Source: an uncultured Actinomycetes bacterium (GTDB lineage: Bacteria; Actinomycetota; Acidimicrobiia; Spongiisociales; DATADW01). Taken from it: a DNA stretch of 64,000 bases. The stretch is from the NCBI GenBank assembly GCA_963780745.1, contig CAWACT010000010.1, positions 305,318-369,317 of the forward strand, in the 5' to 3' direction. The translations under genes and the position numbers were made by a program. Positions within the stretch are counted from its first letter, which is position 1. The number at the start of each line of letters is the position of its first letter. Below are positions 37,254 to 43,310 of this stretch, piece after piece. A model generated the notes under the pieces. The model ran no database searches, was not told the DNA's origin, and saw only the letters and a list, made by a program, of their open reading frames with translations.

Positions 37254-37688
37254 TTCAGTATGTGACCTCTAAAGACCCTGCCGTCGAGCTGGCCAGCGTG
37301 CTCGACCCAGCGCTCCACCATCGCCTCTGTGGGGAGCCGTCTCACCAGCTTCTTCTGCTCGTTGACCTGAGCCAACTTGGCGGCGAGGGCCGCCGCATTG
37401 CGCCGGCCGAGCTTCTCGACGGTGTCGACGCCCGATGCGTCGAGCATGTCGGCATACTCCGCACCGACCCCTCGCACTCTCATGAGGTCGGCCCGGTTGA
37501 CCCACGCCAGGACCTGCGCTTCGGTGCATTTCGCACGCGGCGGCAAGCTCGGTGCGGCCCCGCCGGGTGGCTCCTCGCCGTAGCAGCGCCTCGGTGGTGC
37601 GAACCCCGCTTCTCCGGAGCTTGGCGGCATCATTGGGGCCGATGCTCACGATGGCGGCGATGGAAGCCATCGCGATCCTTTCGCTCAT
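37254..37688 (-). pseudogene. DUF4332 domain protein, two frame shifts
   Basis: MSERIAMASIAAIVSIGPNDAAKLRRSGVRTTEALLRRGATRRGR, then AQVLAWVNRADLMRVRGVGAEYADMLDASGVDTVEKLGRRN...EQKKLVRRLP, then LEVTY-stop. Shifts about 37530 and 37275. Confidence 0.75.
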
Positions 37689-37719
37689 GCCGACCCTGGC
37701 ACGGAGGCTCCGAGCGAGA

Positions 37720-38359
37720 TTAGACGCCGCCCCGCCTGGTCCGTTCGTCGTCAGCGTCGTGCCGAACCTGCCGAGGCTGCAACTCCTCGACGTCGAAACT
37801 GGTGTCTACGTCCCGCGGCGGACAGGCTCTCTAACCAGACCTCGGTGACCCAGTCGGGATGGGCATCGAGCAAGCGACGGGCCCCCTCGTCGCCCTCGAG
37901 GCTCATGAGCCGAGGCCAGAGCAACCGGTCAACCAGAACCGGGTTGCCCCGGGTGTAGCGGTACTTGGGGACCACCGCCGGCGTCTTGCCTGGCCGGTAG
38001 GCCGCGATCACCTCGGCCACGGCCTCCTCGCTCACGTCGGGCTGGTCTCCCATCACGATCAGAGCGCCATCGACCTTCGACAGCCTGCCTATAGCGTCGA
38101 GACCAGCACGCAGCGACGAGGCAAGCCCCTCCTCCCACTCCGGGTTCTCCACCATACCCACCCCGGTCAGGTCGACCTGGTCGGCCGCACCGCATCGGCG
38201 TGGGCGCCCAGAACCACCCAGATCTCATCGATCCCCCAACCGCGCACCTGTGCGCAGCACATGATCGAGCAGGGTCGCCTCGCCCCAGCGGAGCAACTGC
38301 TTGGGCCGGCCCAGCCGGCTCGACCCGCCGCCGGCGAGGATCAGGGCGGCGACCGTCAC
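37720..38359 (-). pseudogene. mocA: MobA-like nucleotidyltransferase (molybdenum cofactor cytidylyltransferase MocA type), three frame shifts
   Basis: [31 protein letters not shown], then [16 protein letters not shown], then VENPEWEEGLASSLRAGL...LIVMGDQP...GNPVLV...GDEGARRLL, then PPRDVDTSFDVEEL. Shifts about 38255, 38190, 37790. Confidence 0.75.
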
Positions 38360-38379
38360 TTCGCACCAGGGTGAGTGCT

Positions 38380-39472
38380 TCAGATGTCGCCCTCGTCGTC
38401 GGTCCGCTGGCGGTGGATCCGTCCCTCGCGGCCCCGGAGCGACCGACCGGTGCCCGCCCCGTAGCGCACCTGGATCATCTCGGCCAGGATGGAGATGGCC
38501 ACCTCGGCCGGCGTCTCTGCGCCGATGTCGAGGCCGATCGGGCCATGGATCCGGTTGATCGCCTCGGTGTCGAATCCGGCGGCCCGGAGGCGCTCGCGCC
38601 GCGCCTGCGTGGGTGCGCCGGCTCCCCATGGCGCCGATGTACCGCACCGGGCTGCGCAACACCGCGGGGAACACCGGGTCCTCGAAGCGGGCGTCGTGGC
38701 TGAGGACCACGACATAGGTGCGGCGATCGAGCGTCGAGATCGGCGAGCACCTCCTCGGGGTGTCCCAACGCCACCTCGGCATCGGGAAACGCTCGGCGGT
38801 GGTGAAGGCAGGACGGGAATCGGAGACGGTGACGCGGAACCCGAGCTCGGTGGCGAAGGCGGCCAGCGGCTGGGCGATGTGGACCGCTCCGAAGATCACC
38901 AGCCTCGGCTGCGGGGCCACAGTCTCGATGAACACCGACACCGTCGTCGTACTCGAGCGTTCGGCTCTGCTCCTGGTCCATCAGCTGCGCGCGCATCGTC
39001 GAGAATGTGATCCTCGAGGCCCGGGGGGAGCTTCCCCTCGACCACCCCGACGTCTGCGTCGAGCACGGCGTGCGAGCCCTCGTCGGGACCGCTGAGCACG
39101 GTCACCGCAGCACCGAGCCGCTCCTCATCCTTGCAGCCGGCGGATCGCCTCGAGGTGGGCGCTCACCATCGCTCGACGTAGACCTGGATGGTCCCGCCGC
39201 AGGCAAGCCCGACCTCGAACGCCTCATCGTCGGCGATGCCGTAGGTGACGAGCCGCGGCTCGGCGCCTGCCAGCACCTCCTGGGCATGGAGGAAGACATC
39301 GTTCTCGACGCAACCGCCGCTGACCGAGCCCTCCATGTCGCCCGCCGACGAGACGAGGAACTTGCGCACCCTCCGGCCTGGGGGCGGACCCGGAGACGCG
39401 CACCACGGTCGCAACCGCGACGTCTTTGCCGTCCGCCGTCCAGCGGTCGTATACCTCGAGGGCGTCCTTCAT
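38380..39472 (-). pseudogene. xdhC: XdhC/CoxF-family molybdenum hydroxylase maturation factor, about 8 frame shifts
   Basis: [36 protein letters not shown], then [23 protein letters not shown]...[13 protein letters not shown], ... [35 protein letters not shown] ... [16 protein letters not shown]...[11 protein letters not shown], then [11 protein letters not shown]...[25 protein letters not shown]. The pieces are spread over all three frames. Confidence 0.8.
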
Positions 39473-40641: not shown

Positions 40642-41760
40642 TCAATCGATCACCGGCAGTGGGAAGCGGAGCAGGGCGGCCGCCCCGGCGCTCATCGATC
40701 GGCGTGCCCTCGGCCAGACTGGACGAGCCTTCCCGCCCGATGCGATGACCCGCTCGATCGCCTCTGCCGCGATATCGGGGTGGTCGCGGGTGGCGCCACC
40801 GCATACCGGGCAACGGCTCCCTTTGCGACCGATCCACCCACAGCGACTGCACACAACGCCCGGCTCGGGCCTGGTGCCGGCGACGCCAAGAAGATCGACG
40901 GCGGCCGAGATTGACCGCTGCCAGGACCTGGTCGAGACCCCAGGCCACGGTATCCCCGCGCCCCGGAGCCGGCCAGGAGCTGGTCGGCCACCGCCTGGGC
41001 TTTGCGGCCCGCGCCGACCCTTCGAGTGTGGACGACTGCCTCCTTGACCGTGTGCGGGGTCGCCGTCGCCGGGTCGATCACGAAGGTGCCGAGCATGCGC
41101 TTCTGCAGGTAGGGGTGCAGGTGACCGGCAAGCTCGTTCCACCTGGTCCTGGTGACCGCCTATCGCCACCCAGGTGACGGGCTCGCTCTTGTGCATCTCG
41201 AAGAAGCGCTCGGCGACACGATCGAAGTGCCGACGCGCCATCTCCTCGGCGGCGTTGCGTGCCCCGTGCTCGGCAAGGCCCTTCCACCCGCCATAGTTCG
41301 CCTTGTGCCCGGTCTCCTCCTCGACCACTCCGGCCGGGGTCATCTCGCCGTCCCGCTTGACGAAGATGTCGGCACGGCGGCGGTCGGTGGTCGCGATCAG
41401 GGTCACCGTCGGCTCGGGTAGGGCACGCAGCGGTCGCAGGTAAGGGGCGTCGGCCAGCATGGCCACATCCCAGACCTCGCCGGGAAGCGTCTCGTAGCTC
41501 ACCTCGCCATTGGTGGCGAAGATGGCCACGCCCGGCGCCGGCTCGGTCTCCAGCCTCCAGCTCAGCTCCATGACCGAACGCAGTGCCTGCCGGACCGCCT
41601 TTTCCTCGCGGTGCTCACTCTCGGCCGCCGCCTCGCGGATCGGCCGGAGCAGGTCGGTGAGCCGGGCGGACGGGTTGACCTGCATCGGTCGGGACAGGTA
41701 GACGGAGAGAACCGGCGCCTCGGCCTCGGTGAGCCGGTCGAGCGTTTCAGCGTCGAGCAT
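40642..41760 (-). pseudogene. eRF1/Pelota-like (bacterial archaeo-eukaryotic release factor, baeRF-type) protein with C-terminal CxxC..CxxC zinc ribbon; at least 4 frame shifts
   Basis: TLIATTDRRRADIFV...GHKANYGGWKGLAEHGARNAAEEMARRHFDRVAERF aligns by eye with the eRF1 M domain (GGQ loop reads YGGW). WVAIGGHQDQVE/ELAGHLHPYLQKRMLGTFVID and AWGLDQVLAAVNLGAVDLL resemble the eRF1 C domain. CSRCGWIGRKGSRCPVCGG is an insert, and the end GAAALLRFPL resembles aRF1 GGIAAILRY. Confidence 0.6.
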
Positions 41761-41877
41761 CGAGACCCCTCTATCGCCAGGGAACCTAATGCAATAGGTG
41801 AGTTCTGGCGCCCTGCGCGTTCGAAGATCTGGCGATCAATAACCCACACCACCCCTTCGATACAGATCGTGGGCCGC

Positions 41878-42771
41878 TCAGCCGGCGAGCAGCGCCTCCA
41901 GCCCGGAGGCGCGGACCCGCTCGATGTCCTCGCGGTACTTGAGCGCCACACCGACGGTCTGCTCGATCACCTCCGGGCGTGAGCCGGGTGGCGTCGAGCA
42001 CGTTCAGCGCCTGCGCCCAGTCGAGCGTCTCCGCCACCCCCGGCGGCTTGAACAGGTCCATTTCGCGCAGCCGTTCCATCGACACGCGCCAGCTCGGAGG
42101 CGAGGACATCGCTGATCCCGGGGACCTTGCGCCCGACGATGGCGACCTCGCGCTCGAACGTTGGGTAATCGATCCAGTAGTAGATGCACCGCCGCTTGAG
42201 CGCATCGTGAATCTCGCGGGTGCGGTTGGAGGTGAGGATGACGACCGGCGGCTCCTCGGCGGCGATGGTCCCCACCTCGGGGATGGTGACCTGGAAGTCG
42301 GAAAGCAGCTCGAGCAGGTATGCCTCGAACTCCTCGTCTGCCCGGTCGATCTCGTCGATGAGCAGCACGGGCCGCTGCCCGAGCGCAGCCAGCTCGACCG
42401 CTTTGAGCAAGGGGTCGAGCCACCAGGTAGTCGCGGCTCATGATGTCCTTGACATCGGCGGCGTGGCCCTCGCCGCGCGCCTCGAGCAGCCTGATGGCAA
42501 GCATCTGCCTGGCGTAGTCCCATTCGTAGAGGGCATGCCCGGCGTCGAGGCCCTCGTAGCACTGCAGTCGGATGAGCGGGGCCTCGAGGAATCCGGCCAG
42601 CACCTTGGCTACCTCGGTCTTCCCCACCCCCGCCTCTCCCTCGAGGAAGAGCGGCCTGCCCAGTTGCAGGGCGAGGTGGATGGCGACGGCCAGGCTGCGA
42701 TCGGCGATGTACTCGCACTCGTCGAGCGCTTCTTGGACGGCGGCAACGTCGGCGGGAAGTGGGTTGGCCAT
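41878..42771 (-). pseudogene. coxD: MoxR-family AAA+ ATPase, CoxD-like; three frame shifts
   Basis: MANPLPADV...RPLFLEGEAGVGKTEVAKVLA (Walker A)...RLQCYEGLD, then PVLLIDEIDRADEEFEAYLLELLSDFQVTIPE...VILTSNRTREIHDALKRRC, then REMDLFKPPGVAETLDWAQAL, then EVIEQTVGVALKYREDIERV. Shifts about 42425, 42075, 41975. Confidence 0.85.
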
Positions 42772-42857: not shown

Positions 42858-43310
42858 ATGAGACGCGGCCTTGGCGTGCTGACGATGGTGGGTTTGCTGG
42901 CACTGGCGGCCTGTGGCGGGTCCAATGGCGGGTCCGACACCACGGCGGGAGGTGGGTCCGACACCACGGCGGGAGGTGGGTCCGACACCACGGCGGGAGG
43001 TGGGTCCGACACGACCGCCGCCGAGGAGGGTGGGGGACCGCATCGGTGAGCATCATCGACTTCGAGTTCAGCGCACCTGCCAGCGTCGCCGCCGGAGCCG
43101 AGATCACCGTGGTCAACAACGGCGACGGCCACCCACACGTGGACCGAGCCGGGCGGCGCCTTCGATACCGGCCAGATCGCACCGGGATCGAGCGCCACCG
43201 TCACCATCGACGCCCCGGGCACATACGACTACGTCTGCTCGATCCACGCCAACATGACCGGTACGATCGAGGTCACCGACGGCCTAGGTGACCGCTTGCC
43301 CGACATCCCA
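42858..43310 (+). pseudogene. Type-1 copper (cupredoxin, amicyanin/plastocyanin-like) lipoprotein with a GGGSDTTA repeat linker; two frame shifts
   Basis: ATG 42858 after GGAGGAGGAG. MRRGLGVLTMVGLLALAACGG lipobox; the 8-aa unit x4; then IIDFEFSAPASVAAGAEITVVNNGDGHPH, then TWTEPGGAFDTGQIAPGSSATVTIDAPGTYDYVCSIHANMTGTIEV (C-x2-H-x2-M copper site). Shifts about 43035 and 43135. The 3' end is uncertain because the frame stays open into the rhodanese. Confidence 0.65.
42927..43017 (+). repeat. 24 bp in-frame tandem repeat (about 4 units) encoding (G/N)GGSDTTA
   Basis: ggtgggtccgacaccacggcggga repeated contiguously inside the cupredoxin lipoprotein linker. Confidence 0.9.

Follow-up and report, generated by a model that had tools for sequence, protein, structure and literature searches.

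Why should a gene for a protein with the fold of release factor 1 lie between the MoxR ATPase gene and the VWA gene of a cox-type maturation cluster? The question is raised by a contig of an uncultured Actinomycetes bacterium (Acidimicrobiia; DATADW01; assembly GCA_963780745.1, contig CAWACT010000010.1, positions 305,318 to 369,317), of which we analyzed a stretch of 64,000 nucleotides (nt), hereafter the window. On its reverse strand, at 41760-40642, an open reading frame of 372 codons follows a gene for a CoxD-like MoxR AAA+ ATPase and precedes genes for a CoxE-type VWA protein, XdhC, a MocA-like cytidylyltransferase, and a DUF4332 protein. A first-pass annotation made from the sequence alone had compared the product of this gene with eRF1, Pelota, and the bacterial baeRF proteins, and had proposed that it serves either in a translation module governed by the MoxR-VWA pair or as a third component of molybdoenzyme maturation. 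We find that the protein is a baeRF_family10 member with a three-domain eRF1 fold, of the type of the ribosome hibernation factors Balon and Rv2629, and that its gene is probably no part of the molybdoenzyme maturation machinery.

The family assignment comes from several models. The match to Pfam PF18854 (baeRF_family10) covered residues 106 to 243 and scored 44.0 bits for a first, stitched version of the protein and 44.4 bits once the reading frame had been corrected (see below), above the gathering threshold of 27.1 bits. The baeRF families 2, 3, and 12 matched more weakly, and precomputed PF18854 matches are present on nearly all homologues. The NCBIfam model for the Rv2629 family of hibernation factors (NF052289) aligned end to end (residues 9-366 on positions 2-357 of 357) at 62.5 bits, below its equivalog cut-off of 320 bits. 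The models for aRF1/eRF1 (TIGR03676; 21.9 bits, cut-off 234.7) and for Pelota (TIGR00111; 11.2 bits, cut-off 177.65) also fell short of theirs. When a family profile built from an alignment of 69 homologues was searched against PDB sequences, the matches were Msmeg1130 Balon (E = 4.7e-35), Rv2629 (8e-25), aRF1 (4af1; 6.6e-23), Pelota (3j15; 3e-18), and the Balon of P. urativorans (3.7e-13).

The structure was modeled with AlphaFold (AF2) for P0001, the closest intact relative (87% identical to the first stitched version of the window protein). The model had a mean predicted local distance difference test score (pLDDT) of 92.6 and a predicted template modeling (TM) score of 0.86, with low confidence only in the loop equivalent to the GGQ loop of release factors. 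Its top Foldseek match was ribosome-bound Msmeg1130 (8v9l_z; TM scores of 0.81 and 0.80), followed by P. urativorans Balon (8rd8/8rdv; 0.73 to 0.75), Rv2629 (8v9k; 0.71), and aRF1/eRF1 (about 0.5). Taken together, the PF18854 score, the profile E values for Msmeg1130 and aRF1, and the TM score of 0.81 place the eRF1-like reading, which the first-pass annotation had reached by eye, far beyond chance.

The central-domain loop corresponding to GGQ reads K153-A-N-Y-G-G-W-K-G-L-A-E164 in the window (KANYGGWKGLAE; 41304-41269, reverse strand). In a hidden Markov model (HMM) alignment, the aRF1 segment GKQRKGGQSAQ falls on the family consensus hKaNygGfsGy, so that GGQ becomes GG[F/W], in agreement with the earlier reading of the loop as YGGW. 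Across 86 sequences, the family motif is K-x-N-[YF]-G-G-[FW]-x-G-[YL]-x-E; the GG is invariant, the surrounding K, N, and G are nearly so, and the residue at position 159 is most often F (71 sequences), otherwise W (14) or M (1). It is important to note that the pattern used for our genome scan was the GG[FW] loop itself, which makes loop conservation among the scanned loci partly circular and not independent evidence. The low pLDDT of this loop in the P0001 model suggests that it is flexible. More distant family-10 members read GGWSQ, whose Gln is probably the conserved glutamine noted for family 10 by Burroughs and Aravind (PMC6514570). The subfamily of the window, which has F or W in the catalytic loop in place of a conserved Gln, has lost it. 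The loop of Rv2629 (HKPVTAGWNGY) resembles that of the window (HKANYGGWKGL). The HMM alignment to aRF1 showed nothing conserved at the NIKS-equivalent loop (R or H at position 50), and there is no equivalent of Pelota loop A. The protein shares with the Balon family the lack of both NIKS and GGQ, and it keeps the GG, unlike Msmeg1130.

A Cys4 zinc ribbon, CSRCGW-x7-CPVCGG (CSRCGWIGRKGSRCPVCGG; 40851-40795, reverse strand), is inserted in the C-terminal domain, which is of the eRF1_3/Pelota type. The first-pass annotation had placed the ribbon correctly but had counted eight residues after the W between the CxxC pairs, where there are seven. The four Cys are present in 85 of the 86 locus sequences and in 58 of the 69 database homologues, and the CxxC-x9-CxxC pattern aligns on the C...CSDCG zinc ribbon of aRF1. 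Burroughs and Aravind described either a zinc ribbon or a two-strand insert at this site of the C domain (PMC6514570), and it is from their insert site that we infer the ribbon to sit where Balons carry the β-hairpin that contacts EF-Tu.

What such a protein does can be judged from its solved relatives. Balon of P. urativorans (8rd8), Msmeg1130 of M. smegmatis (8v9j/8v9l), and Rv2629 of M. tuberculosis (8v9k) have neither NIKS nor GGQ, occupy the A site of the ribosome, touch EF-Tu, and inhibit translation; Balon genes usually lie in stress operons, most often beside RaiA/HPF (PMC10901736). Burroughs and Aravind had predicted the same role from linkage to HPF (PMC6514570), and HPF chimeras have been reported adjoining Balon genes (bioRxiv 10.1101/2025.11.04.686544). 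Two out-paralogs of the window protein, P0031 (38% identity) and P0065 (26%), match this pattern: each directly adjoins a gene for a chimera of about 340 amino acids (L007:9087-10100 and L092:4945-5985), in which an S30AE/HPF-like region at the N terminus, scoring at the Pfam threshold (22 to 23.5 bits), is joined to a C-terminal region resembling sigma-70 region 4/PhyR-sigma. We consider a Balon-like factor that acts in the ribosomal A site under stress to be the best reading of the window protein, and a reasonably probable one. Such a protein would bind the A site of the 70S ribosome, by homology probably delivered by or contacting EF-Tu. It would occupy the decoding and peptidyl-transferase regions, leaving stop codons unread for lack of NIKS. 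Peptidyl-tRNA hydrolysis would most likely be absent, GGQ having become GG[W/F], and ribosomes would thereby be silenced and protected in starvation or stress. The first-pass annotation had likewise taken the loss of Gln to favor binding over hydrolysis, and the ribosome complexes of Balon, Rv2629, and Msmeg1130 bear this out for the solved proteins (PMC10901736).

To describe the neighborhood of the gene in relatives, we scanned one genome per species with a 14-sequence alignment (the 69-sequence alignment was too diverse to serve in the scan) and recovered 80 loci, nearly all in metagenome-assembled genomes (MAGs) of Acidimicrobiia. Five loci from protein look-ups brought the total to 85, which were sorted by tblastn with intact neighbor proteins. 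In 21 loci, as in the window, the order is coxSLM ... MoxR, (VanY-like peptidase), baeRF, VWA, XdhC, MocA, DUF4332; in these relatives, too, MoxR and VWA flank the gene. Nine loci read peptidase, baeRF, XdhC, MocA, DUF4332; 33 read ClpS, DUF2017, baeRF, XdhC, MocA, DUF4332; and 15 read ClpS, DUF2017, baeRF, MocA, DUF4332. In the remaining seven the gene was placed elsewhere, but one of them, L046, is a contig cut off within that same slot (ClpS and DUF2017 immediately precede the gene), which leaves six in truly other contexts. Thus, in about 57 of the 85 loci the gene occupies the same slot with no MoxR, VWA, or cox genes. MoxR, VWA, and coxSLM always occur together. XdhC, MocA, and DUF4332 (37274-39472 in the window) are the constant downstream partners across Acidimicrobiia, and even in a still more distant member of the family (31% identity) MocA and DUF4332 accompany baeRF. 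A VanY-like Peptidase_M15_4 gene (for instance, L002:3853-5010) stands between MoxR and baeRF in about 19 of the 85 genome loci and, with no baeRF gene, between MoxR and VWA in 10 metagenome loci.

In a neighbor-joining tree, the loci with MoxR and VWA fell on several deep branches, and those without them formed nested or sister clades. Among 17 loci with the MoxR-baeRF-VWA triad (L001, L002, L010-L012, L015, L029, L032, L034, L038, L040, L043, L053, L060, L061, L082, and L083), the pairwise distances of the three proteins were correlated at r = 0.95 to 0.97. The deep branches and the correlated distances suggest that the triad is old and has descended as one unit, its cox/MoxR/VWA part having been lost at least three times, as far as an unrooted gene tree can indicate. 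In these same loci the mean pairwise distance was 0.55 for baeRF, 0.38 for VWA, and 0.25 for MoxR, which makes baeRF much the fastest evolving of the three. Two contigs of one MAG bin (MFD02360.bin.2.54), L011 and L016, each carry a baeRF-VWA-XdhC-MocA block with MoxR upstream, of which only the 3' end was matched in L016; identity to the scan query is 84% for one baeRF copy and 82% for the other, the copy of L016 has three internal stops, and the pair could be a strain mixture or a duplication.

The reverse scan, with the VWA protein alignment against metagenome contigs, gave 70 informative loci. The gene directly upstream of VWA was MoxR in 45, the peptidase in 10, and baeRF in 15, so that 55 of the 70 have no baeRF gene. 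Some of these (L097/L099, L114, L157) lie in the same frame of synteny, in which VWA is followed by MocA, DUF4332, and DAHP synthase. At L143:6698-6949, between an intact peptidase gene and VWA, there is an internal baeRF fragment of 84 residues (about residues 218 to 301), which looks like a loss of the gene caught in progress. Because baeRF and the MoxR/VWA genes have each been lost while the other persists, the survey argues against an obligate functional coupling between them, and it does not bear out the dependence of the protein on the pair that the first-pass annotation had entertained. The gene has a fixed chromosomal slot in Acidimicrobiia, and we propose that in the ancestor of the sampled lineages this slot was part of a form-II cox-type cluster, with the CoxD-like MoxR gene on one side and the CoxE-like VWA gene on the other. 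Its position would then be a matter of inherited gene order, possibly with co-regulation, and of no mechanistic partnership.

The sequence upstream of the gene points in the same direction. The 117-nt spacer that separates it from MoxR (41877-41761) has a GC content of 58%, against 68 to 70% in the flanking genes (it had been noted before as AT-richer), and its last ~50 nt before the baeRF start are conserved in close relatives. They include TAGGTTC (41788-41782, reverse strand), a -10-like element of the TANNNT type that lies 21 to 27 nt upstream of the ATG and is a candidate promoter. The pattern TAG[GCT]TT[CG] occurs within 160 nt upstream of the gene (at 15 to 120 nt) in 47 of the 48 loci that have DUF2017 in place of MoxR, and it occurs in the clade of the window as well, against a background of 0.007 per 181 nt. 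It is always intergenic and precedes the gene with or without MoxR (including L030-L089). Since the element is present irrespective of MoxR, it suggests, at the level of a consensus, that the baeRF gene heads its own unit, baeRF-(VWA)-(XdhC)-MocA-DUF4332, independent of MoxR. Rfam searches of window positions 36 to 46 kb and of seven related loci returned nothing, and hence no molybdenum cofactor (Moco) riboswitch, and RNAalifold found no conserved structure in the leader.

Several observations weigh against the reading as a Balon-like factor encoded in an inherited slot. The function would be carried over a large distance, as the 62.5 bits against a cut-off of 320 on the Rv2629 model indicate. 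The subfamily has an invariant GG in a constrained loop, unlike most baeRF families that lack the Gln, in which the loops are poorly conserved (PMC6514570), and it may therefore have some catalytic or other activity specific to the peptidyl-transferase center. The order MoxR-baeRF-VWA has been kept, with the distance correlations given above, over up to 70% protein divergence, and the gene always stands beside Moco genes (XdhC/MocA), with gaps of 0 to 230 nt; chance synteny does not usually persist to this degree. In the window, baeRF has no HPF gene next to it. More broadly, the neighbors in the window and in the 78 syntenic loci are Moco, cox, and ClpS genes and not those of a stress or hibernation operon, and HPF-like neighbors were found only at the out-paralog loci L007 and L092. 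Finally, a generic scan of 39 to 46 kb for sigma-70 promoters and terminators found no promoter, and terminators only at chance level.

The adjacency to Moco genes could have a regulatory meaning. The gene might be co-expressed with Moco and cox-type genes in a starvation or persistence program, with no physical interaction between the products, so that ribosomes would be parked alongside the activity of a maintenance-energy dehydrogenase. Aerobic CO-dehydrogenase-type enzymes are starvation induced. The tight, same-strand unit baeRF-(VWA)-XdhC-MocA-DUF4332 behind a conserved -10-like element fits this idea, as does the usual location of Balon genes in stress operons (PMC10901736). However, the CoxL encoded in the window is of form II and has no assigned substrate, most loci have no cox genes nearby, and class-wide synteny alone could account for the adjacency. 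We regard co-expression of this kind as unlikely, though worth keeping in view. For a true coupling of ribosome silencing or pausing to the maturation or expression of a xanthine-oxidase-family molybdoenzyme in dormancy the prospects are poorer still; if it were true, the zinc ribbon and the GG-aromatic loop would mark a mechanistically distinct branch of hibernation or rescue factors. Likewise, that the persistent adjacency to Moco genes by itself reflects real coupling, be it regulatory or mechanistic, strikes us as quite improbable. The neighborhood, previously undescribed, is probably incidental.

As the main alternative to a hibernation role, the protein might act on stalled ribosomes in active release or rescue, either hydrolyzing peptidyl-tRNA or splitting the ribosome in the manner of Pelota. 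The invariant GG with its nearly invariant neighbors and the retained zinc ribbon of aRF1 type would suit such an activity, and Burroughs and Aravind suggested possible catalysis for family 10, whose distant members read GGWSQ (PMC6514570). Against this, the Gln position is aromatic in all but one of the 86 sequences, part of the loop conservation is a product of how the loci were found, neither NIKS nor an equivalent of Pelota loop A is present, and the nearest solved relatives, which have no hydrolase motifs, act as inhibitors (PMC10901736). On balance we find an active factor doubtful, and a Balon-like inhibitor remains our preferred reading.

Less likely again is the proposal that the protein is a third component of the CoxD/CoxE-like MoxR-VWA module or of molybdoenzyme maturation. 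In one variant it might couple translation to cofactor insertion by pausing synthesis of the molybdenum subunit; in another it might be remodeled by the ATPase. The triad is conserved and co-diverges in 17 to 21 loci, the gaps between baeRF and VWA are short (8 to 89 nt), and adjacency to XdhC/MocA extends across the class, down to 31% identity. But an obligatory component should always accompany the pair and be absent otherwise, and here the expectation fails both ways: the gene occurs without MoxR, VWA, or cox in about 57 of the 85 loci, and 55 of the 70 loci with close VWA relatives lack the gene, some of them within the same syntenic frame. The decayed remnant in L143 and the out-paralogs in unrelated or HPF contexts speak against it as well. 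Moreover, the family profile matched 5,999 cluster representatives (968 at E <= 1e-30), and the 150 best-scoring of these are 182 to 499 amino acids long, mostly about 360 to 400, a length at which no fusion to an AAA+ or VWA domain is possible. A literature search found no paper linking MoxR, eRF1, and VWA, and the Balon paper makes no mention of molybdenum, MoxR, XdhC, ClpS, or Acidimicrobiia (PMC10901736). MoxR-VWA pairs have also been described in multi-component conflict systems; here, PADLOC matched none of the proteins encoded by baeRF, VWA, the peptidase gene, and DUF4332, gave only P-loop-level matches for MoxR, and assigned no defense system. We judge a third component very unlikely.

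The reading frame of the gene itself had to be corrected. In the window the baeRF gene stays open in one frame, yet for the middle and the C-terminal part of the protein this frame is the wrong one, and the peptides quoted in the first-pass annotation were all found, spread over three reading frames: in addition to the loop and the ribbon, DRRRADIFV (41385-41359), WVAIGGHQDQ (41172-41143), AWGLDQVLAAVNLG (40945-40904, in a different frame), and AAALLRFPLPVID (40683-40645), all on the reverse strand. A tblastn search with an intact relative passed through the shifted frames and did not localize the frameshifts. DNA alignment to the relative L001 (91.7% identical over the gene) located eight single-base changes, all toward the 3' end of the gene (41136, 41032, 41004, 40958, 40909, 40731, 40719, and 40690, reverse strand): seven are insertions and one is a deletion, a net gain of 6 nt. 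With these insertions and deletions (indels) removed, the gene encodes a protein of 370 amino acids that is collinear with the intact relatives P0001-P0004. These were 77 to 87% identical to the first stitched version; against the corrected protein, P0001 is 95% identical over residues 1-208 and 91% over residues 209-370. The public protein database entry, P0005, is the uncorrected translation of 372 amino acids, so the frameshifts are present in the deposited assembly.

The indels are a property of the region rather than of the gene. Alignment of 11.7 kb of the window with L010, an Illumina-assembled relative, shows 78 gaps, 66 of them single-base; 65 are insertions in the window and 13 are deletions. 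L001 and L010 differ by only 7 gaps. Between 30.6 and ~44 kb (~13 kb) the indel density is about 7 per kb, and only one indel lies within 44.5 to 51.8 kb. Across ~30.6 to 44 kb, insertions number 65 to 72 and deletions 13 to 23. Most of the inserted bases fall outside homopolymers (21 of 69 stand beside an identical base). At least 10 genes are split over two or three frames, including those for DAHP synthase, an acyltransferase, and an epimerase. After correction, the ratio of nonsynonymous to synonymous substitution rates (dN/dS) of the baeRF gene against two relatives is 0.16, with 0.12 in the clean 5' half and 0.21 in the indel-ridden 3' half. The segment from ~30.6 to 44 kb looks like a poorly polished part of a long-read assembly, and the insertion bias, the sharp boundary, the housekeeping genes hit, and the purifying selection together argue that the broken frame is an artefact and not decay; the gene looks broken in this window solely through assembly errors. 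That it is instead a pseudogene in a decaying cox maturation region, as its eight frameshifting indels within 450 nt and the split MoxR, VWA, XdhC, MocA, and DUF4332 genes beside it might suggest, is extremely improbable, given that the indel density is the same over at least 13 kb, the DAHP synthase, acyltransferase, and epimerase genes included, and drops abruptly at ~44 kb, that an excess of insertions is the opposite of bacterial decay, that the indels mostly avoid homopolymers, and that the gene is under purifying selection and intact in all close relatives.

The flanking genes, all on the reverse strand, were delimited by tblastn with intact relatives, and the order and coordinates agree with those given earlier. 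MoxR (42771-41878, with a TGA at 41880-41878; located with the L001 orthologue) runs through three frames because of the indels and matches Pfam AAA_5 and a MadB-like NCBIfam model (278 bits). The VWA gene (~40609-39473), also in three frames, starts 32 nt past the baeRF stop, and its L001 orthologue matches PF05762 (VWA_CoxE) at 197 bits. It is followed by XdhC (39472-38431), MocA (38359-37723), and DUF4332 (37670-37274). Upstream of MoxR, beyond genes for a membrane protein, a rhodanese, and a cupredoxin, lie intact coxS (48372-47872), coxL (47872-45521), and coxM (45518-44661). CoxL has the form II motif AYRGAGR and scores 674 bits on the aerobic CO-dehydrogenase model (NCBIfam cut-off 991) and 666 bits on the glyceraldehyde dehydrogenase model (cut-off 790). 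Below both cut-offs, it would be classed as a form II, cox-type enzyme with no substrate assignable by these models. At 42930-43012 on the forward strand, a 24-nt unit is repeated perfectly in tandem, 3.5 times, and gives rise to GGSDTTAG repeats in a linker near the N terminus of a cupredoxin lipoprotein, whose L001 orthologue is only 68% identical.

Balon-type factors were not recognized until 2024, and little of their diversity has been mapped. The subfamily described here is widespread and combines a Gln-less loop, as in Rv2629, with ancestral aRF1 features, the GG pair and the Cys4 ribbon, which makes it useful for comparison in tracing how hibernation factors arose from release factors. 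In genome annotation, such genes, now labeled "hypothetical" or "peptide chain release factor subunit 1," should not be taken for CoxD/E/F machinery. The survey also provides a clean example of a long-conserved "sandwich" gene order with no obligate functional coupling.

Set against known systems, the window protein is closest to Balon (PMC10901736). The two have in common the three-domain aeRF1 fold (TM score, 0.81), a length of about 370 amino acids, the lack of NIKS and of the GGQ Gln (AGWNGY in Rv2629, GGWKGL in the window), and a C terminus ending in ...ALLRF/Y. They differ in that the window protein keeps an intact Cys4 ribbon at what would be the site of the β-hairpin insertion described for the C domain in the Balon paper; in the invariant GG within the K-x-N-[YF]-GG-[FW]-x-G loop; in that no HP motif was identified in the window protein, which also stays far below the cut-off of the Rv2629 model; and in a context of Moco/cox genes in place of RaiA, Hsp20, or RtcB. 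Compared with baeRF family 10 as defined by Burroughs and Aravind (PMC6514570), the Pfam threshold is passed and the N-M-C architecture with an insert at the zinc ribbon site is the same, whereas in the window subfamily F/W occupies the GGQ position and a G stands where GGWSQ has its Q, and that paper describes no association with MoxR, VWA, XdhC, or MocA. With aRF1/eRF1 the protein shares the fold (the profile match to 4af1), the K...GG...R framework of the M domain, and the zinc ribbon of the C domain, but it has no NIKS and no Gln and is bacterial, existing alongside a normal RF1/RF2 system. With Pelota/Dom34 it shares the central and C-terminal domains (the match to 3j15), but neither the signature of the Sm-like N domain nor loop A. 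The flanking genes are of the type found in the CoxD/CoxE/XdhC sets of aerobic CO-dehydrogenases and the xanthine-oxidase family. In the canonical sets, however, MoxR directly precedes VWA, as it does in 45 of the 70 informative loci with the closest VWA relatives, and within such a set the eRF1-fold gene is a lineage-specific lodger and no recurrent member.

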